Part shown: piece by piece, positions 674-36,528 of the stretch
How positions within the stretch are numbered: the stretch's first letter is position 1
Layout of the letters: every line of letters starts with the position of its first letter
Source: Ignavibacteriota bacterium
GTDB taxonomy: Bacteria; Bacteroidota; Ignavibacteria; UBA10030; UBA6906
Assembly (NCBI GenBank): GCA_963849385.1
Contig: CAWKHH010000009.1
Span: forward strand, 77,337-141,336
Length of the DNA: 64,000 bases
Reading direction: 5' to 3'
Notes under the pieces: generated by a model
What the model saw: the letters and a program-made list of their open reading frames with translations, nothing else
The model's database searches: none
What the model was told of the DNA's origin: nothing
Made by a program: the position numbers and the translations under genes

Positions 674-689
674 GAGACGATTGCTCCCT

Positions 690-830: not shown

Positions 831-832
831 AG

Positions 833-1558: not shown

Positions 1559-2231
1559 AAAGAAGCGTGGAGACGGTGATCACCACGACAATGTACGAAA
1601 TCAGGATCTGAAATTCACCTGCAGCCTCGCCGAGAGGAGCACCGTCTGAGGACAGCCGTGTGGCGTTAATGACAGTCATAAGCAAGGGCAGTAAAATAGG
1701 GAACGATAAAACAGGGTACAACGTTCCCTTGGTATTTGCGCGGGCGATGATTGCGGCGATGATCGTGGATGCTGCGGCGAGTCCGATGCTGCCGAGGGCG
1801 ATGGTCAGCAAGAAAATACTCAGGGTGCGGACGATGAATCCGTTGATGAAAAAGGCATACAGCACAACGGTCAACAGTGTCAGCCCTGCGCCGAGGACAA
1901 GATTGAAAAGCAGTTTTCCGGCAAACACCGCACCGGGGGGAGTCAGGAGCTGCAGGGTCATGCCTGTCCCCCGTTCTTCTTCCATCACAAAGGTCCTGGA
2001 AAGCCCCGACATCGCGGCAAAGAAAATCACCACCCAGAGCATTCCTGCGAGCACATCAGGTGAAGCCCCTTCACCACCGAGGGAGAAGAGAATGATCGAG
2101 ATGGTGGTGACGACAAACATCACCAGGGCGCTCATGGCATAGCGGGTTCGCAGTTCGGATCGCCAATCCTTGAGAAACACCGCCACAGCGGCACGCATCC
2201 ACCTCAGCGTTGTGGTCTCACGCGCGGACAT
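1536..2231 (-). CDS. ccmB: heme exporter permease CcmB
   Basis: Six-TM ABC-2 type permease with a length and hydrophobicity profile like CcmB. Start ATG (MSARETTTLRW...) overlaps the ccmA stop. Confidence 0.8.
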   Translation of the reverse strand: MSARETTTLRWMRAAVAVFLKDWRSELRTRYAMSALVMFVVTTISIILFSLGGEGASPDVLAGMLWVVIFFAAMSGLSRTFVMEEERGTGMTLQLLTPPGAVFAGKLLFNLVLGAGLTLLTVVLYAFFINGFIVRTLSIFLLTIALGSIGLAAASTIIAAIIARANTKGTLYPVLSFPILLPLLMTVINATRLSSDGAPLGEAAGEFQILISYIVVVITVSTLLFEYIWKD

Positions 2232-2841
2232 TGAGATCCACCGTGCGTTCGTAGATATCGATGTCCGAGAGGTCGTTCGTTGCCACAACAAGGATCCCGC
2301 GGGTCCGCTGCTCCGTCATGATGCCGCGAACGATCATCATGCCGTCTGCATCGAGGTTGGACATGGGCTCATCGAGAATCAGTATGCGGGGGCGATGTGC
2401 CAGCGCCAACGCATATTTCAACCGCTGCTTCATACCCGAGGAGAAGCCGTGGACGGGATCCCCCCTCCTCGGGTCGAGGGCCACGCGCGCGAGCAGGTCT
2501 TCATGGGTGCGTGCATCTCCGTGGAGACCGCGCAACGCCGAGGCCAGCTGCAGGTTCTCCATTGCGGAAAACTCGTCGTACAGCTGGAGGTATGGTGACA
2601 CCAGACCGAACAGCGCCATCCGGCTGAATGCATTCAACGGGCCTGCCCCGTCGATCTCGACACTTCCCTGGCTGGGACTCAGAACCCCGCAGAGGATCTT
2701 CACGAGAGTCGACTTTCCGGAGCCATTCCTGCCGGCGATGAGGAGTGTCTCGCCTTCGCCCACGGCGGTGACGATGTTCTCAAAGACAATCCTGCGGTTG
2801 AATGCCTTACGCAAGCCATGTGTTTCGAGCCGTAGGGCCAT
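2218..2841 (-). CDS. ccmA: heme exporter ATP-binding protein CcmA
   Basis: 207 aa ABC ATPase with Walker A GRNGSGKST, signature FSSGMKQR and Walker B ILILDEP. First gene of the ccm operon. Confidence 0.9.
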   Translation of the reverse strand: MALRLETHGLRKAFNRRIVFENIVTAVGEGETLLIAGRNGSGKSTLVKILCGVLSPSQGSVEIDGAGPLNAFSRMALFGLVSPYLQLYDEFSAMENLQLASALRGLHGDARTHEDLLARVALDPRRGDPVHGFSSGMKQRLKYALALAHRPRILILDEPMSNLDADGMMIVRGIMTEQRTRGILVVATNDLSDIDIYERTVDLNVRA

Positions 2842-2844
2842 CGG

Positions 2845-4527
2845 TTACTCGCGCACTACGGGGATTTTCCCCGTCACTCTTCTTCCGGGCAGTTCGATGA
2901 CGTACATGTACACTCCTGTCGGAGCAACATTCCCGTCGGCCAAGCGTCCATCCCAGGAAAACATCTGACGCCCAAGATGCACCGTTGACGAAACGTCAGG
3001 GATCTCCCGAACGAGATCTGCGGACGCGCTGAAGATGTAGAGTGCACCCCGTTGCGGCTCCATCTCTTCTACGGGAAGGTACACGCACGGCGCCCGGCCC
3101 GGACGGAACGGTGACGGGAAAGGACGTTCACTGGAGAACGACGATGGATCAATATACGGGTTGGGTGTATTACGGACGATGTACCACGTGGACCAGAGGC
3201 TTATGTCCGTCACATCGAGTTTGCTGTAGATGCCGATCGGTGTCGGTTTGTACGAGTCGTCAACCCGGGTGGACCGCAGGCGTAACGTGTACGGCAACAG
3301 CGGAATTGACGGGAGGAGTGTTCCGGCGACGTCGACATTAGACATCATGACCGTCATTGTATCCAGTCCGTGTTGCACCTGTGCGTAGTGGGTCCCCAGA
3401 CTTTGCAGCGAACCGGGCACATCCCGTGAAGCTCCCGCAAAATCTATGGGTGATTGAACAACCTGTGGGTAGTCTGCACCATCGGTGTAGTAGGTTGCCG
3501 GGTTTGCGCGCGCACCGGTGAAGTAGTTCCAGAGGGACCACGCGGCATAGGCCCCGGCAAAATCCATTCCGTGGGCTCGGAGCGTTTGATCGATGGCGCT
3601 CTGGGGACGGGCAAACTTGATGTTTTCCCAGGTCTCTCTCATCACGTCAATACCAAAACTCTTGCTCACGTAATGCCCCCAGATGGCCCGGCTGTACATG
3701 ATCAGTTCACTCGACGCGAATGAAGTCTCAGGGTTGCGGAAGTGGCTCCACGAGGCCTTCAGATAATTGTAGTAGTCATTCACCTCCGGGTACACGACAT
3801 CCTCCATCCAGGTGGAGGTGATTTCGTAGAAGAACGCATCCTCATCCCAGTAGCCGTAGTTACCGATCTGCAAGACATGGTTCAACTCGTGGGCGATCGT
3901 CACCCTGAGTCCCGGCATTCCCCGATTCTTCTCGGGACGGACGAACACGAAATCGTTGTCTATCGTTATGGAAGAGGACGTGCGTCCGCCTGCCGGAATG
4001 CTTTCATCCGGCGTTGTGTAGCCGTACATGTTGCCCAGCTCCATGACGTAAATATCGCACTCAGGTCCGCCGCCAAGCAAGCCGTCGCTAATGGGAGGCA
4101 GATAGTGCAGCGTTCCGATCTCATAAGATGCGGCATACGAAAGGATGGAGAAGATGGAATCGACATATGCGCGCGCAGTGCCTGGAATCCGTGCGCCTGC
4201 GGAATCCAGGAGGGCAGGAGTGTTTATGCCGATGGTATCGTAGTGGACGCGAAAGTTGCCCGCCAGCACGGACACCTGCAATTCAGTCCGGGCGAGGATG
4301 CCGGCCACACCAGCCTGACGGGCCTGCTCAGTCGGACCGGTACGACGTTGATGAAGAGCGAAGCTGATGACGGGAAATCCGCATTTCACCGGTTCACCAT
4401 CCGGAGGGGCCAGGTGTGCAGGGATGGCGAGTGAGGTTCCGGATACGAGCCGAAGTGCCTGTTCCTGCGCCACACATTTCACGCAGAGCGCCAGCGCCAC
4501 GACGGCTATTACGACCGGGGCTTTCAT
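2845..4527 (-). CDS. secreted zinc metalloprotease (HEXXH) with C-terminal T9SS-type (Por_Secre_tail/FlgD-Ig-like) sorting domain
   Basis: N-terminal signal peptide and a HELNH zinc-binding motif. The last ~70 aa (LYIFSASADLVREI...WDGRLADGNVAPTGVYMYVIEL...GKIPVV) match the T9SS C-terminal domain pattern. Confidence 0.7.
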   Translation of the reverse strand: MKAPVVIAVVALALCVKCVAQEQALRLVSGTSLAIPAHLAPPDGEPVKCGFPVISFALHQRRTGPTEQARQAGVAGILARTELQVSVLAGNFRVHYDTIGINTPALLDSAGARIPGTARAYVDSIFSILSYAASYEIGTLHYLPPISDGLLGGGPECDIYVMELGNMYGYTTPDESIPAGGRTSSSITIDNDFVFVRPEKNRGMPGLRVTIAHELNHVLQIGNYGYWDEDAFFYEITSTWMEDVVYPEVNDYYNYLKASWSHFRNPETSFASSELIMYSRAIWGHYVSKSFGIDVMRETWENIKFARPQSAIDQTLRAHGMDFAGAYAAWSLWNYFTGARANPATYYTDGADYPQVVQSPIDFAGASRDVPGSLQSLGTHYAQVQHGLDTMTVMMSNVDVAGTLLPSIPLLPYTLRLRSTRVDDSYKPTPIGIYSKLDVTDISLWSTWYIVRNTPNPYIDPSSFSSERPFPSPFRPGRAPCVYLPVEEMEPQRGALYIFSASADLVREIPDVSSTVHLGRQMFSWDGRLADGNVAPTGVYMYVIELPGRRVTGKIPVVRE

Positions 4528-4550
4528 GGATGGATGCTTCTCCCCTGCTC

Positions 4551-5021
4551 TTACTCGTGCCGGCGGCGCTGCAGGCGAATTTCGCGGCGCTGCAAAGCCT
4601 CCGTGTACCGGCGTTGCTCATCCTCCGTCTCCGGTTGCACCGCGGGGACGGGCTGTGGCGTCCCCTGTTCATCGATGGCAACGAATGTCAAATACGCTGT
4701 ATTCGCCGTGCGGACAGGAAGCTTCGCATTGCCGTGAGCAGTAACTCGCACACCGATCTCCATGGAGGTGCGGAATGCCCGGTTCACCGACGCTTCCAGT
4801 GTAACCACTTCACCCAGTTTCACAGAGTGATGAAAGTTCAACGAATCCACAGACGCCGTAACGCACACCATGCCGGAATGGCGCTGGGAGGCGATGGCGG
4901 CGACAATATCGATCCAGTGCATCAACGTTCCACCAAGCAGATTTCCCAACTGATTCGTGTCGTTGGGCAACACGAGTTGGGTTGTGGTCACCTGAGATGC
5001 ACGAACGGTTTTGGCCGGCAT
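4551..5021 (-). CDS. acyl-CoA thioesterase (hotdog fold, YciA-like)
   Basis: 156 aa with the hotdog thioesterase pattern (QLVLPNDTNQLGNLLGGTLMHWID...). Start overlaps the bamD stop by 1 nt. Confidence 0.75.
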   Translation of the reverse strand: MPAKTVRASQVTTTQLVLPNDTNQLGNLLGGTLMHWIDIVAAIASQRHSGMVCVTASVDSLNFHHSVKLGEVVTLEASVNRAFRTSMEIGVRVTAHGNAKLPVRTANTAYLTFVAIDEQGTPQPVPAVQPETEDEQRRYTEALQRREIRLQRRRHE

Positions 5022-5827
5022 CAGAGCCCCATCCCCTTTCCTCCGGACCCGGGTTCGCTTTTGACCGACGGGGAGGGGATCTCCCGATCGATGTCTGTCT
5101 TCAGGGATTCCATGCGTCCGCGCAAAACGCTATTGGGATATTTCTCGAAGAAGCGCGATGCCTCGGCGGCTGCCTCACGGTACTTGTTCCGGCTCACCAG
5201 CAGTTCAACTTTCCCGATGTACGCGAGCGGCGCGTATTCGGTATCATGATATTTCTCAATGACGTCGTCGTAGTAGAAGATCGCGGACCGGTAGTACTGC
5301 ATTGTGGAATACAACCGGGCAGTGTCGTACTGCTTTTTGGCCAGCCGGATCGTCAGTTCGCGAATCTTTGACTCTGCATCGACCGCGTTGGCGTTGGCAG
5401 GAAAGTACTCCACGAAACTCTGAAACTCGTCAATGGCTTTGCGTGTGTACTGCTGATCGAGGGAAGGCTTTGGCGAGAGGTTATAGTAGCACATCGCGGT
5501 CTTGTAGCTTGCGTCAGCAACCCGTGTACTGGCCGGATAGTTCCGTCTCACCACCGAATACTCGAATGCGGCGAGCAGGTATTCCTCGCGCTTGAATCGG
5601 CATTCGCCAAGATAGAATTGCGCCTCCGGAGCCACAGCGCTTCCCTGATACTGCAATGTGATCACGGTGAACTCGTTTATTGCCGGGAGATAGTCGCCGT
5701 TGTCAAAGAGGGCCTTCGCACGTTCGAATCGCTCTTCGACGCTCATGATTTTTGTGACTTCGCCGGAACCGCATCCGGCAAGGATGAAGGCAGTGACACC
5801 AAGAACTAGAACTAAGGACTTCGCCAT
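5021..5827 (-). CDS. bamD: outer membrane protein assembly factor BamD (TPR lipoprotein)
   Basis: Lipoprotein signal MAKSLVLVLGVTAFILAGC followed by TPR-like repeats, resembling BamD/YfiO. Internal ATG at 5827 was chosen as the start. Confidence 0.75.
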   Translation of the reverse strand: MAKSLVLVLGVTAFILAGCGSGEVTKIMSVEERFERAKALFDNGDYLPAINEFTVITLQYQGSAVAPEAQFYLGECRFKREEYLLAAFEYSVVRRNYPASTRVADASYKTAMCYYNLSPKPSLDQQYTRKAIDEFQSFVEYFPANANAVDAESKIRELTIRLAKKQYDTARLYSTMQYYRSAIFYYDDVIEKYHDTEYAPLAYIGKVELLVSRNKYREAAAEASRFFEKYPNSVLRGRMESLKTDIDREIPSPSVKSEPGSGGKGMGL

Positions 5828-6846
5828 GTAAACCACTCCTCTGCTGCTCCCGTCGAGAGGTGCCTTACCCGTTCAAGGACGCGCGCGGCATCCGGACCGG
5901 GAGGGAGAATCTCCGGCTGGTACCCGCAGCGCACCGGTAAGCACCGCATTACATCCACATGATTGCCCGCACCGTCTTTCAGCAAACGGACCGCCAGCGC
6001 GAGTCCGTAGCGGGTCCAGTACCGCGATGGTTGTTCAAAAACACAATTGCCCAGAGAGTGCGCAATCACACTCCCGCCTTCACGAACGATCCCGTGCGGT
6101 ACGTGGGGATGATGCCCCAGCACCAGATCGACGCCCGCCTTTGCCGCAGCGCGCGTGAACGCCATCGTTCCCGCAGTCGGCCGGTCGGTATACTCTTCAC
6201 CTCCGTGATAACTCAAAATGACAAAGTCCACAGAATCCCGCCAGGCCCGGATTCGGGGAAAAACGCGCGCGGTGTCACTGTACGCAACCAGGGTATCCCA
6301 GCACGGCGGCCGGATATTCATGAGGCCGGCGCACGCAAACAACGCAATCTTTACACCGTTCACCGAGAACTGCACCGGTTCATAGGTCTCGCGGGTTGTT
6401 CTTCCGCTCCCCGCATGCATGATGCCTGCGGAGTCCAGGTGCGCAAGCGTTTCGCGCTGACCGCGGATCCCATAGTCCAATGCGTGATTGTTTGCCGTCG
6501 CAACGACCGTCACACCTCCCATGCGCAAGGACCACGCGCCGGACGGCGGACCTGTAAACACATAGTTGTTGTGCGGATCTTCAGTCTCCCCGTCCTGATC
6601 CGATAACGATGACTCCAGGTTCGCAAAAACAATGTCATACGCAGCCAGGGTACCGGCCAATTTCCGAAACGGGTGAAGCGTGTCACCCCGTAACAGCATT
6701 TTCCCGAGCGTCCGGCCGAGATTGATATCGCCTAGTGCTATCAGCCGGACTTCCCCGCGGTGCGGGATCGCGTCAACGGAGGAGACGACCGTCTGGGCAT
6801 TCGCACTTCCCTGGAGCGCGAGCAGAGCTGCCGCCCACCACACCAT
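5812..6846 (-). CDS. CapA-family metallophosphatase (poly-gamma-glutamate synthesis CapA-like)
   Basis: Signal peptide, LIALGDINLGR, and conserved His/Asp metallophosphoesterase motifs (GHHPHV). Confidence 0.7.
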   Translation of the reverse strand: MVWWAAALLALQGSANAQTVVSSVDAIPHRGEVRLIALGDINLGRTLGKMLLRGDTLHPFRKLAGTLAAYDIVFANLESSLSDQDGETEDPHNNYVFTGPPSGAWSLRMGGVTVVATANNHALDYGIRGQRETLAHLDSAGIMHAGSGRTTRETYEPVQFSVNGVKIALFACAGLMNIRPPCWDTLVAYSDTARVFPRIRAWRDSVDFVILSYHGGEEYTDRPTAGTMAFTRAAAKAGVDLVLGHHPHVPHGIVREGGSVIAHSLGNCVFEQPSRYWTRYGLALAVRLLKDGAGNHVDVMRCLPVRCGYQPEILPPGPDAARVLERVRHLSTGAAEEWFTWRSP

Positions 6847-6864
6847 GCCGCGAGCCGTCAAGAA

Positions 6865-7491
6865 TCAACTCCTCGTCGTAAAGAGCAGGAAAATGGCAAC
6901 GCCGATGGCGCCGACCAGAATCAGGGGTTCAAGCCACGAAGTAAAGAACCCTTCGGAAGGGACGACTGCGCGCGTCGCAGCCACTCCCGGATGCTCGACA
7001 AGGTCAACGTCACTGACATTGATCGTATCGGTGCGCTGAGATCGCCATTCCTGATCGAGCAGAAATCGTGCCGATTGACGGTCGCTCACGCGCAACCAGA
7101 GCGCCAGCGTGGCGGTGCGGTCGAGAACGCGGGCACCGAGAAGCCCTTCGCGGCGAACATTCGTGTAGCGCACATGTGCATCCTTAACACCGCAATCGAG
7201 CCGCCAGTTTCCTCCGTCGGGGACCGGCAGGAGGTTTCGTTCACGCAGCGCGCGCGCAATAGCTTCTTCGACAAACCAGTATGTGCCGGCTGGTTCAACA
7301 GCAATCAGCACCCGGAGAGAATCGGAAGGGTGCAATTGTGAACAGAGCTGCGCAATCGCATCGGCGGCGAGCGACTGATATACGCTCACTGTCGACGCGG
7401 CTCGGCCAACTTCAGGCTGTGCGGATATTTTCGGTGCGCCCGCGAAGCAAAGTGCAACGACAAGCGCTTCGACTACCCCGCTCCTCATCAA
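6865..7491 (-). CDS. hypothetical exported protein with C-terminal transmembrane anchor
   Basis: Signal peptide with AQ cleavage context and a C-terminal hydrophobic helix. No recognisable family. Confidence 0.45.
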   Translation of the reverse strand: MMRSGVVEALVVALCFAGAPKISAQPEVGRAASTVSVYQSLAADAIAQLCSQLHPSDSLRVLIAVEPAGTYWFVEEAIARALRERNLLPVPDGGNWRLDCGVKDAHVRYTNVRREGLLGARVLDRTATLALWLRVSDRQSARFLLDQEWRSQRTDTINVSDVDLVEHPGVAATRAVVPSEGFFTSWLEPLILVGAIGVAIFLLFTTRS

Positions 7492-7503
7492 GGACCTCAG
7501 GGG

Positions 7504-7785
7504 TCAGGCCCCGGCTGAACTGGCTATAGTGTTCTTCTGCTCAGCCGGCTTAGAACGTTTACGGTAAAGAATGCCGATCGGTATGATAACGCAATAGCCC
7601 AACACAAGCAGAATGGGGGAAACGACAAGTGGCAGGAAGCCCTCGATCGAACCCTCGAGCATTGCCGCATAACCCGCGGCGATCACCAGAAGAGCGAAGC
7701 CGAGGATAATGAAATTCTGTCGGTTGAGAGGAAGCGACGTTTCCCGTATTGATTTCCGGACTTTGGCTTTAGTCGGCTTGGCCAC
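7504..7785 (-). CDS. DUF3098-family small membrane protein
   Basis: Basic N-terminus then NFIILGFALLVIAAGYAAML...SPILLVLGYCVIIPIGILYR, matching the DUF3098 pattern common in the FCB group. GTG start with an upstream GGAG. Confidence 0.5.
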   Translation of the reverse strand: MAKPTKAKVRKSIRETSLPLNRQNFIILGFALLVIAAGYAAMLEGSIEGFLPLVVSPILLVLGYCVIIPIGILYRKRSKPAEQKNTIASSAGA

Positions 7786-7819
7786 GGTGCTCAGCTCCGA
7801 AATAGTGTTCGAACCCCTC

Positions 7820-7854
7820 AAAATAAAAGCCCAGCGTTGGGGGGAACGCCGGGC
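7820..7854 (-). terminator. rho-independent terminator after lolD
   Basis: Minus-strand RNA folds as a 9 bp stem (CCCGGCGUU ... AACGCUGGG, including one G-U pair), a 6 nt C loop and a UUUUAUUUU tail. A weaker hairpin with a T tract also lies at about 7926-7948. Confidence 0.5.
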
Positions 7855-7971
7855 TCGACCATGTACCGTACAACAGTCAGGGGAGTAACTGTCGTATAGG
7901 TCGTCAATAAATATACAAAAAGAAGGGTCGATTGTCAAGACCCGGCAAGCATCTATTTTGGCTAATATTCA

Positions 7972-8687
7972 TCAGGTTGCCAAAAACGGGGTCGTTTCAT
8001 GAATCACGCCGTCCACGATGCGAAGCACTCTGTCCGCCTGACGGGCGAGGTTTTCGTTATGGGTGACCACGATGAACGTTTGGCCCCATTTTGCGGCTCA
8101 GATCCCGTATCAACTCGTGCAGGTGCTCAGCATTGGCGCTGTCGAGGTTCCCGGAGGGTTCATCAGCGAGAATCACCCGGGGGGCGTTCATCAGAGCACG
8201 GGCAACCGCGACTCGCTGCTGTTCACCGCCCGAGAGCAGCGGTGGCTGTCTGTTCCGCACGGCCATCCACACCGACTTCGCGGAGCAGACGCAGGGCTTT
8301 TTGGCGAACATCCTGAAGTTTCGCCCCCATGATCAGCGAGGGCATGGCCACGTTCTCGAGCGCGGTGAACTCCGGCAGGAGATGGTGAAACTGGAAGACA
8401 AATCCGATGGAACGATTTCTGAAGCGCGCGAGGTCATCATCCCCCAGTGCAAACACATCCACATCGTCATAGTGGACATTGCCGGAAGTCGGCCGGTCGA
8501 GCGTGCCAAGAATATGCAGCAATGTGCTCTTCCCTGCCCCCGACGCACCGACAATGGCGATAATCTCACCTGCCGCGATGCGCAGCGTGACTCCGCGCAG
8601 GACACAGAGCTTGCCTCCGTCCGATGCCCCTGCCCGAAACGTTTTGGTGACTGCGGTCGCTGTGATGATACCTGGCGTAGATGTCAT
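7972..8687 (-). CDS. lolD: lipoprotein-releasing system ATP-binding protein LolD; reading frame is interrupted twice
   Basis: Walker [10 protein letters not shown] and [15 protein letters not shown]. The protein is spread over three frames (ORFs 8223-8687 and 8057-8311, plus a C-terminal [29 protein letters not shown] frame). The two +1 shifts lie near 8248 and 8085. Confidence 0.7.
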
Positions 8688-8694
8688 GCCACTG

Positions 8695-9925
8695 TTACTC
8701 CCACCGGATTGCCTGCACGGGCAGCAGACCTGCGGCCCTGCGGGCTGGATAGAGTGATGCGAGGATGCTCAAGCACATCGAAGCGAGAGCCACAGCCACA
8801 AAGTCGCTCCACCGCACCTCGACAGGAATGGCCGGAATGATGTACACGGTCGGGTCCAGCGGAAAGAGCTGGTAGCGTATCTGGAGATAGCAGACCAGGA
8901 GCCCGATGCCGGTGCCGAGAAGCGTTCCGATCGTTCCCACGAGCACGCCTTCGAACATGAATACTCTCATGATGCTCGATGATGTCGCTCCGAGCGCCTT
9001 GAGAATACCGATGTCGCGGCGTTTCTCGATGACACCCATCGTCAGCGAACCAAGCACATTGAACGTGGCCACACCGACGATCAGGCAGAGGATGATGTAC
9101 GCGGTCCACCGTTCAATCTTCATGACAGAGTATAAATCTCTGTGCAGATCGTACCATGTGGAGACCCGGTACGATGGACCGAGAGCGCGTTGCAGATCCG
9201 CCTTGACGCCGTCTGCGTCGCTGATGCTGTGCAGGCGCATCTCCACCCCGCTGACCGCATCGCCCATGTCGAAGAGCGCACGTGCAGTCGCCAGGGACAC
9301 GTACGCATAGTGGGCATCGTAATCCTTGTTGTTGGAGTCGTACACGCCGACAACCGTGCATTCGCGCATCACCGGCTGCCCGAATTGCACGACCATGGCA
9401 TCCACGCCGACCGGACTCAGGATGGTGAGATCGGCGCCGACCGTGGTTCCCAAACGGTCTGCAAGTCCCAACCCGAGCACGGTCCCCGCCTTCTCCGGTG
9501 TGTCGTTGAAGGCGAACGCTCCGAGGACCGTGCGTTGCTTCACCCCGGATACGCCCTCGACGAGAGAATCATCCACCCCTTTCACAAGGACAACGCGGTT
9601 CATCCGGCCGGCAACGAGCAGCGCTTTGTTGGCCACATACGGCGCAGCGGCTGCGATACGCGGATCGCCTCTGAGTTCCTGCATCACGCTGTCGGTGAGA
9701 CCCATGCGACCGCCGCGTGCAGCTTCGATACGCACGTGCGGATCGAATCCTACGAGCACGTTCGTCACCACGCTGTTGAATCCGTTGAACACCGAGAGGA
9801 CGATGATCAGTGCTGCAACGCCGACGGTGATCCCGATAACCGACACCAGCATGATGATGTTGATGAAGCGCATCTGGCGCTTTGAGCGCACATACCGCTG
9901 TGCCATGAATCGTTCGAAGCTCATC
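8695..9925 (-). CDS. lolE: lipoprotein-releasing ABC transporter permease, LolC/E family (FtsX domain)
   Basis: About 410 aa with an N-terminal TM, a large periplasmic loop and a C-terminal FtsX-type 3-TM bundle. ATG (MSFERF...) overlaps the upstream stop (ATGA). Confidence 0.75.
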
Positions 9926-11141
9926 AGGAGAACCGGATCGCTGTGACGGGGTTCAATCGTGACGCAAGACGCGCAGGAATCAGGGAACTCAGCAGGCAAA
10001 GTCCGATCGTAATCGCAGAGACAATGGCGAAATATTCCGCGCGCAGCAGAATCGGCACGGAGGTCATGAAGTAGATGTCGCTCGGAAGCGACAGGAACTT
10101 GAATTCCTGCTGGGCATAGCAGAGGCCGAAAGCGAGGAGATTGCCCAGTGCGGTACCGGTCAGCGCGATCGTCAATCCCTGCCTGAGGAAGATGCGTGTG
10201 ATTCCCCACCGCGTAGCTCCCATCGACGCAAGGACCCCGATCTCGCGGGTCTTGTCGAGCACCATCATCAGCAGCGTGCCGATGATGTTCACGGTGGCAA
10301 CCACAATGATCAGGCCGAGGATGATCGGGATCGGCTTTTTCTGGAGTTCGATCCAGCTGAACAGATTGCGGTAGGACTCAAAGACGGTTTGCGCGTAGTG
10401 CGGGTAGCCGAGGAGATCTGAGACACGCCCCGCGATCGCCTCCGCGCTGTCGACTCTGCTCAGGTGGACATCGTACCCGTTGACAGCGTCACCAATCTGG
10501 AAGAGGATCTGGGCATCGCGCAGGTCGGTGAAGGCATAGATGTCGTCGTACTCTGCCATGCCGCTTTCATAGATGCCCGTCACGCGGAACTGCATTGCCC
10601 GTGCCTGTCCGCCCTCAAGCATCCGGCCGACGCCGAATATCACCGCCCGATCGCCGACGTTGAGGGCCAGACGTGACGCAAGCTTGCGCCCGATGACGAG
10701 CTTTGCCCCGTCTCCCTGCGGGTGACCGATGTCATACATGCCGGCCACCATGTACTTGCGCCCGATAGGGTTCTCGATCGACGGGTCGACGCCCTTCAGC
10801 AGAATGCCGTCAACACCTTCGCGCGATCGCACGAGTGCCTCGCGTGCCACATAGGGGGATACCGCGGTGACCACGGGAGACATTGCGGCAATACGTGCAC
10901 TGTTCTCCCGGTAATCCCTGAGCGGCAGGTTCTGATACCCGACGATCTGTACATGGCTCGTGAACCCGACGACTTTCTCGGTGATTTCATGCTCGAATCC
11001 CCCGAGCACAGAGAGGGCGATGATCAATGTCGCGGTGCCCAGCATGACACCCATGACGGAGATTCCGGCAATAAATGAAAAGAACCCCGCGTTGCGCTGG
11101 GAACGGAGGTAACGCCGGGCGATCATATCGCTATAGGACAT
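9924..11141 (-). CDS. lolC: lipoprotein-releasing ABC transporter permease, LolC/E family (FtsX domain)
   Basis: 405 aa paralogue of the next gene with the same topology. Immediately follows prfB. Confidence 0.75.
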   Translation of the reverse strand: MSYSDMIARRYLRSQRNAGFFSFIAGISVMGVMLGTATLIIALSVLGGFEHEITEKVVGFTSHVQIVGYQNLPLRDYRENSARIAAMSPVVTAVSPYVAREALVRSREGVDGILLKGVDPSIENPIGRKYMVAGMYDIGHPQGDGAKLVIGRKLASRLALNVGDRAVIFGVGRMLEGGQARAMQFRVTGIYESGMAEYDDIYAFTDLRDAQILFQIGDAVNGYDVHLSRVDSAEAIAGRVSDLLGYPHYAQTVFESYRNLFSWIELQKKPIPIILGLIIVVATVNIIGTLLMMVLDKTREIGVLASMGATRWGITRIFLRQGLTIALTGTALGNLLAFGLCYAQQEFKFLSLPSDIYFMTSVPILLRAEYFAIVSAITIGLCLLSSLIPARLASRLNPVTAIRFS

Positions 11142-11143
11142 GG

Positions 11144-12255
11144 TTACGCAGGGCTCCCCGGACCGGTGGCAAGGAGGAATCCTTTGATGAAATCGTCAAT
11201 GCCTCCATCCATCACCCCCTGAACGTTGCTTGTCTCAACATCCGTGCGGTGATCTTTCACCATGTTGTAAGGATGGAACACATAGGAGCGAATCTGGCTG
11301 CCCCACTCTATTTTCTTCTTCGTGCTTTCGATGGCGTCCCTTTTCGCCTCATCTTCCTCCTTACGCCGCTGATAGAGCTGCGACTTGAGCATTTTCATGG
11401 CCGACTCGCGGTTCTGAAACTGCGACCGTTGCTGCTGGCAGGCCACGATGATGCCGCTGGGAACGTGGGTGATACGGACGGCGGTTTCCACTTTGTTGAC
11501 GTTTTGCCCTCCCTTGCCGCCCGACCGGTACGTATCGATCTTGAGATCCACAGGGTTTATTTCGATTTCCACATCGTCTTCAATTTCGGGATAGACAAAG
11601 ACTGAAGCGAACGATGTATGCCGCCGCGCATTCGAGTCAAACGGAGAGATGCGCACAAGCCGATGGACGCCATTCTCTGCTTTGAGATAGCCGTACGCAA
11701 ACTTGCCTGTGACTTCCACCGTCGCGCTCTTGATGCCCGCGGAATCCCCTTCGAGACGATCCACCAGGGCGACAGAAAAGCCTTTCCGTTCACACCAGCG
11801 CAAATACATGCGGAGCAGCATCTCACCCCAATCCTGCGCCTCCGTCCCTCCGGCACCGGCATGAATCGTGAGAATTGCATTGCGCTCATCATCATCGCCG
11901 CTGAGCATGTTGCGGAACTCAAGCTCGGCAAGACCGGAACGCATAGCCTGCCAGTTCTGTGCCGATGTCCGTGGCCAGCGATGCATCGTTCGACTCTTCC
12001 GCGAGTTCAACGAAGGTGCTCGCGTCGCTGAGACGCTTCGCCAGCCCCTTCCATGCATCAACCCACTCCTTGCGCGAACTGATGTCCTGCATCACCTTCT
12101 GGGCTGTGACATTGTCATCCCAGAAATGCGGGGCCTGGCTCTTCTCCTGCAATTCCGCTATCGCTTTTTCCTTGGCATCAATGTCAAAGATACCCCCGGA
12201 GCGCCTTCAAGCGCTCGGTGAGTTCCTTGATCTCCGTTTTTTGATCTTCGAGCAT
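11144..12255 (-). CDS. prfB: peptide chain release factor 2, with the canonical programmed +1 frameshift plus one additional frame break
   Basis: N-terminal [23 protein letters not shown] is followed by the CTT TGA C shift site with an upstream AGGGGG. Downstream are the SPF and GGQ motifs ([20 protein letters not shown]). A second, unexpected +1 shift sits near 11945 between ORFs 11919-12152 and 11144-12061. Confidence 0.9.
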
Positions 12256-12323
12256 AAAACCTTCTGCTGTTGTACAGAACGCCATCCGGGTTCTACGGCC
12301 GGAACGTCGGATTCACGGGTGGG

Positions 12324-14091
12324 CTAGACAATTCTGATATGCAACTCCCGCAGCTGCTTGTCGTCCACTTCACTCGGTGCTTCGTCCATCAGGGAGACAG
12401 CGTTGGCGGTCTTGGGAAAGGCCATGACATCTCTGATGGACTTCATTCCCGTCATGATCATCACCAGACGGTCAAAACCGAAGGCAATGCCCCCATGGGG
12501 CGGTGCGCCATACCGGAACGCGTTCAACAGAAACCCGAACCTGTGCTCCGCCTCTGTTTCTCCAATCCCGATGAGCTCGAACATCCGGCTCTGCATTGCC
12601 CTATCATGGATGCGGATGCTCCCTCCTGCAACCTCGGTTCCGTTCAGGACCAGGTCATACGCCCGTGCCCGGGCCTTCCCGGGGTCAGTGTCAAGCAAGG
12701 CTGCGTCATCCGGGTTGGGTGCAGTGAACGGGTGATGCACGGCTACAAATCGCTTCTCTTCTTCGCTGTATTCGACGAGGGGAAAATCAGTTACCCATAA
12801 TAGATCAAGTCTGTTCTCCTGAATAAGCTTAAGCCTCCTCCCCATCTCCAGACGCAGCGTACCGAGAATGGTGTACGCTTTGGTCCAGGTGTCAGAGACC
12901 AGCAGCGCCAGATCCCCCTTCTTGCCCCCCATGGCTTCGACCATCTTCTGCAGAAGATCTTTGCCGAGGAACTTCTCAATCGGGCACTCAACCCCGTTCT
13001 CGGTCCATCTGACGTACACAAGTCCGCCTGCGCCAAGGCTCTTCGTGTAGTCGACAAGCCCGTCGAGTTGGTTCCGGGTCATGCCTGCTTCGCCGGGAAC
13101 GACAAAACCCGCCACAACACCGCCTTCCTTCACAACATCTGCGAAGACCTTGAAGGGGGCATCTTTCACAATATGGCCCACGCTTCTGAGTTTCAGGCCA
13201 AATCGGGTGTCCGGTTTGTCGCTTCCGTATGTTTCCATTGCCTCGGCGTACGTGAGGCGCGGAAGAGGCAGCTTGAGCTCGACTCCCTTAAGCTCCTTGA
13301 ACATGCGCTGCATCAGCCCTTCGGTAATGTCCCTTATATCCTCCTCGTCAACAAACGACATCTCGACGTCAATCTGCGTGAATTCCGGCTGGCGGTCCGC
13401 ACGCAAGTCCTCATCCCTGAAGCACTTCACGATCTGCACGTAGCGGTCCATCCCCGAAACCATCAGCAACTGCTTGTATGTCTGGGGTGACTGTGGCAGC
13501 GCATAGAATCGTCCGCGATGCACACGACTGGGGACGAGATAGTCCCGTGCTCCTTCCGGCGTGCTCTTCATCAGAATCGGTGTTTCGACCTCGATGAACC
13601 CGTGTTCGTCAAAGTACCTGTGCACGAGCTGGTACAACCGATGACGGAACTGAAGATTCTTCTGCAGAGTCGGACGGCGGAGGTCCAGATACCGGAACTT
13701 GAGACGCAGATCCTCACCCGCATCCACATCTCCATCAATCGGAAACGGAGGAGTCTCGGCGCGATTCAGGATTGTCAGCTGCTCGGCCATCACGTCAATC
13801 TGCCCGGTCGCCAGATTCCGGGTTGACGGTCCCTTCCGGCCTCATTTCCACCGTGCCAGTCACAGAAATCACGAACTCGCTTCTCAGCTCCTTGGCTAGC
13901 TGATGGGCATCCCCGTTCTGTTGAGGATTGAAAACAACCTGCGTCTTTCCATACCGGTCACGGAGGTCGATAAAAATCACCCCTCCGAGATCCCTGCGGA
14001 CGTCTACCCATCCATTCAGGGTCACATTCTTCCCGATAAAGTCGGGACGGAGTTCACCGCATGTATGTGAACGTTTTGCAAAAGCCTGCAC
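12324..14091 (-). CDS. aspS: aspartate--tRNA ligase; frame interrupted once near 13800
   Basis: N-terminal OB anticodon-binding domain ([19 protein letters not shown]...) in ORF 13795-14631 and the class II catalytic domain ([20 protein letters not shown]...GGSIRIH) in ORF 12324-13793. GTG start at 14091 with an AAGGAG RBS. Confidence 0.85.
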
Positions 14092-14415
14092 GTGGATCTC
14101 CTTGGATATCAAACATTTAATATAGCCAAAACCTGCAAGAGTATCAAACCCGGGCGGTGCAGAATGACCCCCAGGATTGAGGTTGGCAACGCATTTGCAT
14201 ACTTTGATCAAACCTCCAACGACATCGTGCAACCCATGCGCATCATCCTTGCATTTCTGGCATTCGGCGACCATCCCGGTTCTCGCACAGGATGATCCGG
14301 CAACTCTTCGCCGTATTCGGGACGACAAGATCGAGACGATCCTCCGTATAGCAGGACCGCCGGTCGCTGCACGACGGACAATTGGTGTCACTCCTCTCCG
14401 ACGCTGATCCGGCCG

Positions 14416-16315
14416 GTGCGACGCCGTGCATATCTCTCGTACGGCAGCATCCAGGACAGCACAGCGCTTCCGCTTCTCGTTCGTGGCCTCAGCGACCCTG
14501 ACATCACCGTGGAAGAAGCTGCTGCATTCGCCATCGGACAGACCGCCGCAGGTCTTTCTCTGCCGCGGAGAACCGAGCTGGAGCATGATCTTCTCTGGAA
14601 TCGTATTCAAGCGACGCAGGTTCCTGATCAATTGATAGAAGAACTTGGAAAATTTGGCACTACGGCCGGGTTGCAGGACTTAATCATCCGCATCGGCAAT
14701 GTGTATCCCCGGAGCCACGAGGGCGGCATGACCATGGCGATCGCCCGATTTGCCATACGCGGCATTACCGACGCAGGAGCAGTGCGATATCTCCTGGCAG
14801 GAATCCGGACAGCAGACCCGGTGCCCTGGCAGGCAATGTATGCGCTGCAGCGCATAGGTGATCACCCTGAAATCCGGGCAGACCTTGAACATCTCGTACT
14901 TCTCAGGCAGAATCAGGATCCGCTTGTTCGCATGAATCTGGCGACGCTGCTTGGCAAACTCCGCGACGCGCGCACAGCCAAAGATCCATTGATCCGTCTT
15001 GCCTCCTCCGACTCCGACTGGCGCGTGCGCGTCTCCGCGCTTCGATCCCTTGCCGGTTACCCGATCGCATCCGATCCGGCAGCGCTGGACGTGTACCGCC
15101 GGGCATTTTTCGATGCCGACATGAACATCGCGCTGGCAGCCATCGCAGCGCTCAGATCATCGGACATCACTTCCGTCCGACACAGCCGGCACTGGAGGCG
15201 AGGTTCTGATGCAGCTTGGCAGCATGGCGACCAACCACGGTAATGCTTTCGCGTGGCAGTATCAGGCTGAGTCTGCCCACACAATCGCCGGTCTCCTGCG
15301 GTCAGCGGCGTTCCGGCACTTCGCTGAAGCTTCCTGGCCAAACCCCAACCTGCAGGCAGAGATGCTGCGCGCGCTGGGATCAACCGGTGTTACGCAAGCA
15401 GCCGCACCTTTGCTTGCAGCCCTTGATGACGATAATTCCATCGTCAGGTGCGGCGCACTCGAAGGTTTGGCAACCCTCGCAGCCCTTCGCCCGACAGACC
15501 ATGGATTGCGCAAGGCCGTACGTGCGACCCTGCCGGGGCTGGGCGAGAGCGGAGACGTGGCCGTCGTCGCCACTGCGGCAGGAATGCTCGCCGACTCTCT
15601 TTTTGCCGACGCACAGAGCACAACTGATCTTTTACGTTTGCTTTCCCGGGTGCGCGGTCCCGACGACGTCGAAGCACTGTTGGAGGTCATCAAGGGTCTT
15701 GGCGCCCTCGGCGAGAACCAGGCCGTTCCGCAACTGATTGAACTGCTGTCGCAGACAGAGCGCTCAATCGCATCTCAGGCCGCCGCAGCATTGCGTCGGA
15801 TCACGGGCATCGACTACTCCGGCAGGATCGTCGACCGTGAGCCGTTCTACACCGACTTTGATTTCGCATACCTCAGGTCACTCCCCGACACCATCCATGT
15901 GACGGTGTCCACGGCACGCGGCGATATTGCCGCGGAACTCTACAAGGAGCTTGCGCCGTTCACCATCATGAGCATGCTCAAACTTTCGGCGCAGCGCGGT
16001 TTCTATCGCGGACTCACCTTCCACCGCGTTGTCCCGAATTTTGTGATCCAGGGAGGTTGCCCGCGCGGAGACGGTTGGGGCGGCCCCGGGTATACGCTCC
16101 GCTCGGAATTCTCAACTGCCCGCTATCTCACCGGCACGATTGGTATCGCATCGGCGGGGAAGGATACCGAGGGTTCACAGTTCTTCGTTACGCATTCACC
16201 GCAACCGCATCTTGATGGACGGTACACCGTCATCGGCCGGGTGACTGATGGACAGCGGATCGTCGATTCGATCCAGCGCGACGATCGCCTATTTGACTTC
16301 AGAGCTCAACAATGA
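14416..16315 (+). CDS. HEAT-repeat (PBS-lyase-like) protein fused to a C-terminal cyclophilin-type peptidyl-prolyl isomerase; frame break near 15180 and the true N-terminus may lie upstream
   Basis: Repeated LxxLxDxDxxVRxxAxxALG-like HEAT units, then a cyclophilin core ([13 protein letters not shown]...GWGGPGY). ORFs 14416-15243 and 15209-16315 overlap in different frames. Confidence 0.55.
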
Positions 16316-16323
16316 GGACCCCC

Positions 16324-18783
16324 ATGGGACAACTGCTTCACTACCGTCGGCATTGTACTCTCTGCACTGTTCCTGCTTTCCGGATGCGGCAGCGGATCTA
16401 ACGCAGTGTTGCCCGGGACACTCGATGACGGCACAACTCTGTCTGCCCAACGGCTGGCGTCTCTCCCCTGCAGGCACGCATCTCGGCGTTGGCGAATTGC
16501 CTCTCAACGCGGATCTGTCTCCCGATGGTCGGTACGCAATCATTACGAATGACGGCACCTCACAGCATTCGATCTCGATAGTCGATCTGGATCGTTGGGA
16601 AGTTACGCAAACGTTGCGAATCCCGAAGGCCTGGATGGGCATCAAGTTCTTCGATGGCGGGAAGAAATTCGTCGCCTCCGGAGGCAATGATAATTGCCTT
16701 CGGATCTACCGGTTTGAGGATGGGATGGCAACGGAGGAGGACAGCGTTTCCGTCGGTCGCCCGTGGCCGAAGGATAAAATCTGGCTGGCCGGACTCGACA
16801 TTGATCACTCCACCTCCACTCTGTTTGTCGCGGGAAAAGAGGACAGCCGTCTGTACGTGATCGATCTTGCCCGCAAAGCTTGTGGGGAGAACCATTCTCT
16901 TGCCTGCCATCCCGTACGGCGTGTTGTGTGATCCCCGTTCACGCAGTGTGTGGGTTTCCATCTGGGGAGGAAGCAGCGTCGTTCGCATCGATGCGGCATC
17001 ACTCTTGCGGTGACGGATTCGCTGAAGGTAGGCGATCATCCATCGGCAATGGAATTCTGGGCAGAAGGCAATACGCTCTGGGTCACGAATTCGAATCTGA
17101 ATACCGTGTCAGTGATCGACGTTGGTTCACGCAAGGTTGTGGAAACTCTCACGACGGCACTTTCACCGCAGGCTCCTCCCGGCAGCACGCCGAACGCTCT
17201 CGCGTTCGATGCCGCACGGAAGAGACTCTACGTTGCCAATGCCGACAACAATTGTGTTGCGGTCTTCGACGTTTCCCAACCGGGCCGTTCCCGCTCGATC
17301 GGGTTCATTCCCGTCGGGTGGTATCCGACCACCGTTCGCGTCCGCCCGCGCAACGGTGAACTGCTCGTGGCCAACGGCAAGGGCTTCGCATCCCGGGCAA
17401 ACCCGCACGGACCGAATCCCACACAACGTTGAAGAAAGGACGAGGAATACATCGGTTCGCTTTTCAAGGGTTCCCTCTCGCGCATCACTCCACCGGACGA
17501 GGCCGCACTTGCTGCCTACACCACGAGGGTCTATCAGAACAGTCGTTACACAGACCAGCGCAGCATGCAGCCCGGCAATGATCCGAAGAACCCGATTCCG
17601 GCACGGACCGGAGGAGCGTCACCGATAAAGCATGTGTTCTACGTTATCAAAGAAAACAGGACCTATGATCAGGTCTTCGGCGATCTTCCTCAAGGCAATG
17701 GGGACGCGTCTCTCTGTCTGTTCCCGGAGGAGGTCACACCAAACCTGCATGCACTTGTGCGTGAGTTCGTGCTTCTCGACAATTTCTATGCGGATGCCGA
17801 AGTCAGTGCCGACGGCCACAACTGGTCGATGGGTGCGTACGCAACTGATTTCACGGAAAAAACATGGCCGACCCAGTATGGCGGCCGGGGCGGTGAGTAT
17901 GTGTACGAAGGCGGAACACCGATTGTCTTCCCTTCATCGGGGTATCTGTGGGACAACTGCCTGCGCAATGGCAGGTCATACCGCACATACGGGGAGTTTG
18001 TATTCAACCCTGAGGTGCCCGGCGATTCAGCGAGACCCGCAAAGGAGTCCATTGCCGGCCATCTCGCGCCGTTCTACCGGGGGTGGGATCTCGACTACTC
18101 TGACGTCGACCGGGTGAAAGCCTGGATGAAGGAGTTTGATGAGTTCGAGCGGACGGGTAGACCTCCCGCAGTTTCAGATCATCAAGTTGCCGAACGATCA
18201 CACGTCAGGCACACGCTCCGGGTCACTTACTCCGAGGGCGTATGTGGCGCAGAACGATCTGGCGGTGGGCATGCTTATCGAAAGGATCAGCCACAGCAGG
18301 TTCTGGAAGGAGTGCGCGATATTCATCATCGAAGATGATGCACAGAACGGACCTGACCATGTCGACGCGCATCGCACGGAGGCCCTGGTAATCAGTCCCT
18401 TCGTCCGTCGCGGCACGGTTGACAGTGAGCTCTATTCCACCACATCGATGTTGCGCACAATGGAATTGATCCTCGGATTGCCGCCGCTCACGCAGTTTGA
18501 TGCAGCTGCAACGCCCATGTATGCATCGTTTTCAGCGGTACCCGATACGACGCGGTATACAAGCCGGCCTGCACGCATCAGTATCTTCGAGCGCAATGCC
18601 GACAAATCTACGGGTCAACTGCGGAGCAACGAACTGGACTTCAGCATTCAGGATGCGATTCCGGACGTGGAGCTGAACGAGATCATCTGGAAATCGATCC
18701 GTGGAGAGCATTCGTCCATGCCGGCCCCTGTCAGAAGCGCATTTGTGCAGGTGCAGCCGGAGGCGACACGGGATCGGGACTGA
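16324..18783 (+). pseudogene. lipoprotein with YncE/YVTN-type beta-propeller fused to a phosphoesterase (phospholipase C / acid phosphatase family) domain; disrupted by at least 5 frame shifts and an in-frame TGA
   Basis: Lipobox LSALFLLSGC, beta-propeller repeats (LYVIDLA, TLWVTNSNLNTVSVIDVGSRKVV, RLYVANADNNCVAVFDV), then phosphoesterase motifs (HVFYVIKENRTYDQVFGDL, IIEDDAQNGPDHVDAHRT). Spread over ORFs 16248-16931, frame 1 at about 16870-17010, 16950-17432, 17565-18338 and 18136-18783. In-frame TGA at 17430. Confidence 0.6.
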
Positions 18784-19612
18784 TAAGCGTCGTTTGCGGT
18801 TTTCCCTGTGCGCCGTCGATGGCCTTGTAGTCTAGTTCCGATCCCAGCACGCTGTGGGGTATCAGGAAGACGATCACCACGATGATCGCGGCACCCAGAA
18901 CCCAGGGTTTCGGGTTCTTTCCTCTGCGCAGGGCAATTGCTGCGACCACCCACGCAAGGACGGCAACGAGAGTTTTGTTATCCGTAAGGTCATGTCCGAA
19001 GGGCCATCCCGTCCAGTAGGCATCGAAGGCATACTTCTGCACGATCGGTCCAAGCAGCAACCCGCCGATGGAGAGGATCCCGATGGTCCAGGCAATGAGA
19101 CGACCATATCGTGGCCTGGCGGCAAATATTTCCAATCCTGCGCGCATGGAGAACAGCATTCCGGTGAACATTGCCAGCACGTGGGGGACCAGCACGAAGG
19201 GAGGGACATCTCCTTTGAAGCGTGTGACGACACCGCCCTCGGCAGGCACGACTGCCGTCCCCTTCCTTCCTGTGAGCTGAACGCGGTAGTCCAGTTTTCC
19301 TGCAGGGGGTTGGTGGGGCAAGGTACCCGACAGATTGCCGTCGCGATAACTCATCTCCACAGCGGTCCATGCGTCGTCGGTTTTGTGGCGTCTCCATTCA
19401 AGCACGCCGCGCACGGCTGGATCCTCGGTTCGAACGAGTACTTCCTGATCACCGTCCCCTCCGTGAGAGCGATCGAACCGGTATACAACTTTCTTCTCGT
19501 CCAGGAGCGCGCTTCCTGAAAGCGGATACGTGGGTCCGGTCATCCGCTGGTAGATCGCAACGGATGAGGTGATGAGAAAGGCAATGATCCAGAGAACGGC
19601 GGTGTGCTTCAC
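18731..19612 (-). CDS. hypothetical integral membrane protein (N-terminal TM, periplasmic beta-rich domain, 4-5 C-terminal TMs)
   Basis: Hydropathy pattern and a clean 293 aa ORF. No recognised family. Confidence 0.5.
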   Translation of the reverse strand: MKHTAVLWIIAFLITSSVAIYQRMTGPTYPLSGSALLDEKKVVYRFDRSHGGDGDQEVLVRTEDPAVRGVLEWRRHKTDDAWTAVEMSYRDGNLSGTLPHQPPAGKLDYRVQLTGRKGTAVVPAEGGVVTRFKGDVPPFVLVPHVLAMFTGMLFSMRAGLEIFAARPRYGRLIAWTIGILSIGGLLLGPIVQKYAFDAYWTGWPFGHDLTDNKTLVAVLAWVVAAIALRRGKNPKPWVLGAAIIVVIVFLIPHSVLGSELDYKAIDGAQGKPQTTLISPDPVSPPAAPAQMRF

Positions 19613-19645
19613 AGATGCTCCTTCGCGTATGGCTGATCGTTCAGG

Positions 19646-19837
19646 TCAGAGATTGAAGTAGAGTTTGTATTCAAACGGATGCGGCATAGTGCCGATTGAC
19701 CGGATCTCCTTCTCCTTTAAACTCACCCACTGCTCAATCAGTTCCGTCGTGAAGACCCCGCCCCGCTTGAGAAACTCCTGATCGGTGTTGTGACGGCGCA
19801 ATAAGGTCGCGCAGTGTTGAAGAAGTCTTTTGTCCAT
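19646..19837 (-). CDS. small hypothetical protein (63 aa) directly upstream of the membrane protein
   Basis: Intact ORF co-oriented with and 33 nt upstream of the 18731-19612 gene. No family recognised. Confidence 0.35.
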   Translation of the reverse strand: MDKRLLQHCATLLRRHNTDQEFLKRGGVFTTELIEQWVSLKEKEIRSIGTMPHPFEYKLYFNL

Positions 19838-19981
19838 GAATCAGTCCGGGAGTGTCGCTGGAGGCGTCGGTAATGTAGTAATATAGCAATAATTGAGCTT
19901 CCTTGCTTAAATGAAGTCATTTTGCTAGGTTTTAGTTTACCCGTTCATCCTCACATTGCACATCAGGAGGCGCAGTCCTTC

Positions 19982-21199
19982 ATGGGTATCAGCCAACTGG
20001 CACGTTCGATTGCCGAGTCCCCCACCCTTGCCATGAATGAGCAGGCACGGCTGCTGCGGGAACGCGGCGAGGCCGTGATTCATCTCGGTGCCGGAGAGCC
20101 AAAGAACAAGGCCCCGATCAACGCCATCCTTTCCTCAGCGGCCAAGCTTAACACGGGTGATATCAAATACACCCCCACCGAGGGGATCCCGTCTCTCCGC
20201 AAAGCCATCATCCGCTATACCGAAGAGAATTATGACCGGGTTGTGGCACCGGAGAACGTCCTGGTCTCCGCCGGCGCAAAACAGGTTTTGTTCCAACTGT
20301 TGTTCACGTTGCTCAACCCTCAGGAAGAGGTGATCGTCCTTGCTCCGTACTGGGTCAGCTATCCCGAGATGATCAAGATGGTATATGCGGTGCCGGTGAT
20401 CGTGACACCGGAAGATGGATCGTTTCATCCGCGGATGGAGGACATTGAAAAGGCCGTTACCGGCTACACCAAAGCAATCATCGTCAATAGTCCCAACAAC
20501 CCCTCCGGGGTCATGTACAATGAGGAGTTCATCGCCCGCATTGTCGAGTTCTGCGAACGCAAGGGCATCTATCTGATTATGGATGATATCTACCATAAGC
20601 TAGTCTTCGACGGCAAGACACCTATCTCCGCCTACAAGCACACCGACAAAGATACTGAGAACACACACGTCATCTCGATCAACGGTATTTCAAAGCTGTA
20701 CGGAATGACGGGATTCCGCATCGGTTGGGTTGTCGCACCCCGGAAAATCGTCCAGGTGATGACCAACGTGCAGGCGCAGACATCATCCTGCACATCGATT
20801 ATCCTGCAGGCCGCCGCCGAGGGAGCGTTGACGGGATTGCAGAGCGTTGTGGAGACGCTCCGGATGACTCTGGAGAATAACCGCAACGTCATGATGCAGG
20901 AATTGCAGGCATTCTCCGGCATCAAGACTACCAAGCCCGACGGGACCTATTACTGTCTTCCTGATTTCCGGGCATACAGCAAGGAGTCCGTCAAGCTCTC
21001 CAGCTTCCTTCTGCAGAAGGCACTCGTGGTCACAGTCCCGGGCAAGGAATTCGGCATGGAGGGGCATCTCCGGCTGAGCTATGCGACCACCGTGAAGGAC
21101 ATCAAGCAGGGCCTGGAGCGCATCAAATGGGCTCTTGATCCCAATGCGCCCAATGAGATCTACATCGGCGAACGAAAACTGATCCGGGATTGGCAATGA
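19982..21199 (+). CDS. pyridoxal-phosphate-dependent aminotransferase, class I (aspartate aminotransferase-like)
   Basis: AGGAGG RBS before ATG (MGISQLARS...). Conserved SPNNPSG motif and the SKxY lysine region (SKLYGMTGFRIGW). Confidence 0.85.
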   Translation: MGISQLARSIAESPTLAMNEQARLLRERGEAVIHLGAGEPKNKAPINAILSSAAKLNTGDIKYTPTEGIPSLRKAIIRYTEENYDRVVAPENVLVSAGAKQVLFQLLFTLLNPQEEVIVLAPYWVSYPEMIKMVYAVPVIVTPEDGSFHPRMEDIEKAVTGYTKAIIVNSPNNPSGVMYNEEFIARIVEFCERKGIYLIMDDIYHKLVFDGKTPISAYKHTDKDTENTHVISINGISKLYGMTGFRIGWVVAPRKIVQVMTNVQAQTSSCTSIILQAAAEGALTGLQSVVETLRMTLENNRNVMMQELQAFSGIKTTKPDGTYYCLPDFRAYSKESVKLSSFLLQKALVVTVPGKEFGMEGHLRLSYATTVKDIKQGLERIKWALDPNAPNEIYIGERKLIRDWQ

Positions 21200-36315: not shown

Positions 36316-36528
36316 TGACTATTCAGAGAGAATCGACAGACACCGCGCATAAGCGCAGAGAAACACTCTCGTTGATTTCAGGCAGCAGCTCTGAGCAAAG
36401 TAGTTTCATTGACGTGTGAAGTCAAGAGGCACCGCAGATAATTTGTACACATTCTTTGCGCATAGGGACGTGGACAACACATGCGGCCCATCTAATCTAC
36501 ACTCAATGAAACGGGGAAACCCCCTTTG

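Follow-up and report, generated by a model that had tools for sequence, protein, structure and literature searches.

The prfB gene in the window (i.e. the whole 64-kb stretch of DNA that was analysed) changes reading frame twice, and two things very probably coincide in this single orthologous gene: the canonical programmed +1 frameshift site of release factor 2 (RF2) and, downstream of it, a spurious extra base that was introduced by sequencing or consensus building. The true gene would then be read in a single frame between the programmed site and the TAA codon, the extra base not being present in the organism. An earlier reading of the letters alone (hereafter the sequence-only reading) had read the second break either as an error or as a lesion of an essential gene; between these two the evidence is strongly in favour of an error, because the extra base is missing in seven relatives, because the codons downstream of it are under purifying selection, and because like breaks are present in dnaE, aspS, lolD and six other genes of the window.

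The prfB gene and its programmed frameshift site

As assembled, prfB extends over three reading frames on the minus strand (12255..11144), from an ATG at 12255 to a TAA at 11146-11144. The start was set at this ATG because one of the close relatives (L086) carries an in-frame TAG just upstream. The gene is composed as follows:

12187 to 12255, minus strand: frame-0 leader of 23 codons, the last of which is the slip codon CTT (Leu) at 12189-12187
12183 to 12197, minus strand: +1 frameshift cassette GGGGG TAT CTT TGA C, i.e. the G-run at 12197-12193 (with a C at 12198 before it), the spacer TAT, CTT at 12189-12187, TGA at 12186-12184 and C at 12183
11952 to 12185, minus strand: +1-frame segment of 78 codons, up to ...TDIGTEL, RF2 domain 1; 100% identity to the RF2 of L081 (residues 1-67 of a 335-aa call)
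11947 to 11951, minus strand: single extra base; the window reads CTGGCAGGCT where relatives read CTGGAAGCT or CTGCAAGCT
11144 to 11947, minus strand: third-frame segment of 267 codons plus TAA, up to ...GPGSPA, RF2 domains 2-4; 98.5% identity over 268 aa

When one base is removed at the second break, the repaired product counts 369 aa and matches the prfB model of NCBIfam (TIGR00020) end to end (profile positions 1-352 of 353), with a score of 536.7 bits at a cutoff of 370; the RF1 models score 270-274 bits on the same protein, below their cutoffs. The motifs for stop-codon recognition (SPF) and for peptidyl-hydrolysis (GGQ) are both located in the third-frame segment. An alignment of the joined translation to related RF2 proteins, which the sequence-only reading had proposed as a check, yielded 98-99% identity to the closest database proteins (P0001-P0003), and the relatives are continuous across the second break; more distant RF2 proteins, at 72-84% identity, derive from MAGs that bear the label Ignavibacteriota or Bacteroidota. 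The window and the syntenic contigs of relatives (L081-L083) share the gene order aspS-prfB-lolE-lolC-lolD, and this conserved order therefore identifies the window's prfB as the orthologous copy and not as a stray duplicate. A decaying duplicate had been raised earlier as the condition under which the frame breaks would have to be read differently; besides the orthologous context of this copy, tblastn recovered no further release-factor gene within the 64-kb window. Judged by homology and genome context, the gene is peptide chain release factor 2 (prfB), in its orthologous copy. TGA is the commonest stop codon and terminates 27 of the 47 long ORFs in the window, and RF2 is therefore required by the organism.

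The context of the first frame change is CTC CGG GGG TAT CTT TGA C, in which the in-frame TGA follows after 23 codons, and beyond this TGA the remaining RF2 is encoded in the +1 frame. The sequence-only reading had recognized both the programmed site and the +1 continuation past the TGA into ORF 11919-12152. On re-reading, CTT TGA C, the 3-nt TAT spacer and the G5 core were found as it had given them, and they are conserved in relatives; its Shine-Dalgarno (SD)-like hexamer AGGGGG has to be corrected, since the first base is C and the sequence reads CGGGGG.

The window contains a single exact copy of GGGGGNNNCTTTGAC (12183-12197, minus strand); a search that tolerates one mismatch gives 2 matches, where 0.47 are expected. 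Such a match is not significant by itself, and what makes it significant is that it lies at codon 24 of an RF2 gene and that it is conserved in relatives. The full CGGGGG TAT CTTTGAC is identical in five close metagenomic relatives (L081-L085), and in L086 only the SD-like run differs, by one base (CGGAGG), the remaining cassette being the same, so that the cassette is kept in 6 of 6 close relatives. At a larger evolutionary distance, we inspected 80 Ignavibacteriota/Bacteroidota loci, taken from genomes that represent species of the wider clade, and 68 of them have CTTTGAN, after which a +1 frame with GGQ stays open for more than 250 codons. The peptide ...LRGYLD... spans the site in RF2 annotations that were joined by NCBI (e.g. 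P0012), and our conceptual join reads identically. In a survey of 12,753 genomes the motif was defined by an SD-like element with the consensus AGGGGG, a gap of 3 nt, CTTT, TGA and C, and 64% of the genomes had a prfB with a premature stop (PMC12421855). Most Bacteroidota that have the prfB site retain a strong SD (PMC10798248). In Flavobacterium johnsoniae the SD was found to contribute little at the prfB site under laboratory conditions.

All sequence-level features of an RF2 autoregulatory +1 frameshift are present at the first site, which by these features is a genuine and canonical example of the known mechanism. On the basis of the same features and of the established work on E. coli, the site may be expected to function as follows. 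When RF2 is scarce, the ribosome would pause at UGA-C, a poor termination signal, its P site being occupied by tRNA-Leu paired to CUU, and the anti-SD of the 16S rRNA could pair with the G-rich SD-like run located 3 nt upstream; tRNA-Leu would re-pair from CUU to UUU, and translation in the +1 frame would yield full-length RF2. When RF2 is abundant, termination would take place at the UGA and a peptide of 23 residues would be released.

The resemblance to the E. coli paradigm (AGG GGG UAU CUU UGA C) extends to the gene and to the N-terminal position within it, i.e. codon 24 here and codon 26 in E. coli. In both cases one finds the L-R-G-Y-L-stop peptide, a G-rich SD-like run, the 3-nt UAU spacer, CUU, and UGA followed by C, with the rest of RF2 encoded in the +1 frame. 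The two differ in the first base of the hexamer, which is C in the window (an Arg codon CGG versus AGG) and which implies one potential anti-SD pair fewer. This form is the commonest one among the Ignavibacteriota/Bacteroidota loci examined (CGGGGG-TAT-CTTTGAC in 20 of the 68 loci with a site), and the effect of the SD is small in some Bacteroidia.

The second frame break

After ...TDIGTEL the frame changes again, and also in the +1 direction. The window holds one extra base at 11950, whose placement is ambiguous within 11947-11951 (CTGG[C]AGGCT) and which forms the sole gap column in a 1161-nt DNA alignment of the window with L081-L086 (89.7-93.1% nucleotide identity). This agrees with the single extra base that the sequence-only reading had put near 11945. 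The junction given there (TELAG/MRSGL) had the right length, although the exact join has to be replaced by TEL[E/Q/A]AMRSGL as the best one: deletion of a base at 11947-11951 leads to Leu-Glu-Ala, Leu-Gln-Ala or Leu-Ala-Ala; relatives have Glu as well as Gln at this position.

None of the seven close relatives (L081-L087) has the extra base. They represent about four independent populations, at 90-93% nucleotide and 98-99% amino acid identity, none of them being the same strain (the nearest are at ~93% in DNA), and the RF2 proteins of the relatives are uninterrupted across the site. The seventh of these contigs (L087) came from the JGI metagenome contigs, which were searched across the second break with a degenerate pattern that allowed a gap of 2-4 nt; it carries the in-frame version with 3 bases, and no contig with a 4-base version was encountered. 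With no same-strain contig among the matches, the scan is weakly in line with an error.

At the junction itself (GAA CTG GCA GGC TAT) we found neither a slippery codon or possibility for re-pairing, nor a stop or rare codon, nor an upstream SD-like run. The term non-canonical frame break, as used in the sequence-only reading, therefore does not hold in the sense of a recoding event, there being neither conservation nor a motif.

The coding sequence on both sides of the break appears to be well maintained. In comparison with the four relative populations, the 78 codons upstream show 9-15 synonymous versus 0-4 non-synonymous differences and the 268 codons downstream show 51-56 synonymous versus 2-13 non-synonymous differences, and no stop codon occurs in these 268 codons. 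By these codon counts, prfB downstream of the break is intact and under full purifying selection, with no sign of decay.

Frame breaks elsewhere in the window

The DNA of the window could be compared with the syntenic contigs L081-L083 over 17.8 kb (window positions 3183-20973). Within this region, the window shows 17 small insertions, all of 1 nt apart from one of 2 nt, and 3 deletions. An identical base adjoins only ~4 of the 17 insertions, so that there is no homopolymer bias. The insertions are clustered, with for instance 4 in 320 nt, 7 in 600 nt and none in 3.6 kb. Outside the comparable region, breaks were inferred from the continuity of Pfam domains. Taken over the complete 64 kb, DNA and protein mapping and domain continuity together yield at least 19 in-gene frame breaks in 10 genes. 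The affected genes other than prfB are:

7975 to 8687, minus strand: lolD (ABC ATPase of the Lol system), two 1-nt insertions at ~8246 and ~8083 that result in three frames
12324 to 14095, minus strand: aspS, 1-nt insertion at ~13814-13835; OB anticodon-binding domain in ORF 13798-14679, catalytic core and GAD in ORF 12327-13841
within 14154 to 18200, plus strand: HEAT-repeat/peptidyl-prolyl isomerase (PPIase) gene, 691 aa, broken at four sites
within 14154 to 18200, plus strand: phosphoesterase gene, 817 aa, broken at five sites
32837 to 36318, minus strand: dnaE (DNA polymerase III alpha), breaks at ~36090 and ~35430; PHP 1-68, PHP 71-164, then DNA_pol3_alpha 3-260 onward, finger, HHH and OB, in three frames
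~36770, minus strand: aldehyde dehydrogenase, profile 9-386, then 387-459
~41920, minus strand: peptidase M16, domain split over pieces
~47800 to 47980, plus strand: ABC-F ATPase, domain split over pieces
~58585, plus strand: Ser/Thr kinase-TPR protein, Pkinase 1-88, then 91-256

Protein-level mapping showed that the aspS, lolD, HEAT/PPIase and phosphoesterase genes are unbroken in the relatives, where aspS for instance encodes a continuous protein of 588 aa. Two extra insertions are located just downstream of lolD (7948 and 7928), which brings the number to four in a stretch of 320 nt, and the adjacent 3.6 kb is free of them. Some nine insertions of 1-2 nt fall in the HEAT/PPIase and phosphoesterase genes (14269, 14350, 14416, 15176, 16338, 16442, 16882, 17005 and 18158), and three further indels are found upstream of aspS (14154-14176). 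In the same syntenic stretch lolE, lolC and six more genes are intact in the window. In the case of dnaE both shifts are +1, as single-base insertions would give. Three of the four other breaks that were inferred from Pfam domains (aldehyde dehydrogenase, M16, ABC-F and kinase) are shifts of -1/+2, and the errors are therefore not all single insertions. No other damage was found in the broken genes.

Several other observations concern the window at large. A cytochrome c maturation operon (281-2844, minus strand; a CcmA-like ABC ATPase, CcmB, a CcmC-like and a CcmD-like protein, and CcmE) is apparently intact, and parts of the window are therefore free of frame breaks. The glutamine synthetase gene (19649-19837, minus strand) lacks 1191 nt (397 codons, in frame) in comparison with L081; the junction at 19782/19783 shows a microhomology of 2 nt, and the remnant comprises 63 codons, the first ~18 being joined to the last 46. 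This gap could represent a real deletion or an assembly collapse. The spacer between aspS and prfB contains a paired +1/-1 indel relative to the relatives (12290-12310), in a divergent stretch, which probably reflects real sequence divergence and not an error. An Rfam scan of the whole 64-kb window yielded no family at the gathering threshold, and beyond ~60.6 kb the coding potential looks low.

Origin of the extra base

The base is present in the sequence as given, and it could in principle be a genuine recent mutation that made prfB a fresh pseudogene, tolerated through a second RF2 copy or through a recent relaxation of selection; our view is limited to 64 kb and a paralogue could lie elsewhere. 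We consider this very improbable. The affected copy sits in the aspS-prfB-lolECD context and is thus the orthologue, of which the relatives have an intact version, it shows no decay after the break, and TGA is the main stop codon. Moreover, dnaE, aspS and lolD would have to be pseudogenes as well. Like prfB, these genes are normally indispensable, and frameshifts in all four at the same time, without other decay, are incompatible with a living cell. The kind of change argues in the same direction: true mutations in bacteria favour deletions, and substitutions build up in real pseudogenes, whereas the window combines an insertion excess of 17:3, without homopolymer bias, with the absence of decay, a pattern that is unlike real mutation and fits errors in a consensus sequence. 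The window does share the presence of many frameshifted genes with the pseudogenes that result from reductive evolution; it differs from them in that the breaks hit dnaE, aspS, prfB and lolD without added substitutions, stops or deletions, in that non-synonymous change is very low and in that insertions outnumber deletions.

Two other explanations would make the second break functional. A split prfB, in which domain 1 (~113 aa after the shift) ends at the TGA at 11921-11919 and domains 2-4 re-initiate at the ATG at 11944-11942, has in its favour that this in-frame ATG (the M of AMRSGL) shortly precedes that TGA and overlaps the end of the upstream frame, a layout that can support translational coupling. 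It is highly improbable all the same, as the ATG corresponds to a conserved Met/Val codon of the continuous protein of the relatives and is not a new start, has no SD-like sequence ahead of it, and belongs to a layout that is unique to an assembly full of like breaks in unrelated genes. A second programmed +1 shift, either at CUG GCA GGC or at the RF2-specific stop that follows (GCU UGA G, 11924-11918), would imply a double autoregulation. Both breaks are indeed +1 and the segment ends in UGA, where a shift would likewise be sensitive to RF2 and would produce a protein of the right length with a substitution of 10 residues. Nevertheless, such a shift is extremely unlikely: it is conserved in none of the relatives (L081-L087), tRNA-Ala on GCU cannot re-pair on CUU so that there is no slippery codon, an upstream SD-like stimulator is lacking, and the nucleotides that distinguish the window from the relatives within the 30-nt overlap are synonymous changes when read in the homologous frame. 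In addition, at least 18 comparable breaks occur in unrelated genes and can be understood without such a shift, and the published surveys, which cover more than 12,000 genomes, report a single site (PMC12421855). None of the three alternatives has positive support, and each of them leaves the breaks in dnaE, aspS and lolD unexplained.

We therefore return to an error in the assembly. The window resembles the indel errors of draft, long-read and metagenome assemblies in that single-base indels affect otherwise conserved genes, including essential ones, and are unique to one assembly; it differs from this class in the strong excess of insertions (17:3), in the absence of a homopolymer bias and in the clustering. 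The deletion in homopolymers that is the classic signature of nanopore and 454 sequencing is different from the pattern in the window, and a homopolymer artefact was ruled out on the basis of the ~4 of 17 insertions that lie beside an identical base. A consensus of mixed strains, for which the clusters should track divergence, was likewise rejected: we observed no clear relation, clusters being present both in the 86-89% and in the 92-96% identity bins. Where relatives show either G or C, the window has GC (11950-11951); this might reflect a SNP that was rendered as two bases, although the pattern does not apply generally at the other sites.

Overall, there is in our view little doubt that the second break is a base inserted in an under-polished assembly and not a biological feature. 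Conversely, it is exceedingly unlikely that the extra base is real and that RF2 is made via two +1 events, the second being a shift at GCU UGA G or a re-initiation at the ATG at 11944. If true, that would amount to a double-checkpoint or split autoregulation of prfB that is absent from the surveys of more than 12,000 genomes.

The programmed frameshift in prfB is itself already known; it is a textbook case that occurs in about two thirds of the bacteria, and the window provides an ordinary, Ignavibacteriota-like example of it. The practical value of the analysis is one of quality control, namely, that the assembly needs polishing. The density of indel-type frame breaks amounts to about one per 3 kb and locally reaches up to about one per 100 bp. 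Automated annotation will report prfB as disrupted past its programmed site, and calls of pseudogenes, split genes or recoding from this assembly (including those for dnaE, aspS and lolD) are to be distrusted until it has been re-polished.
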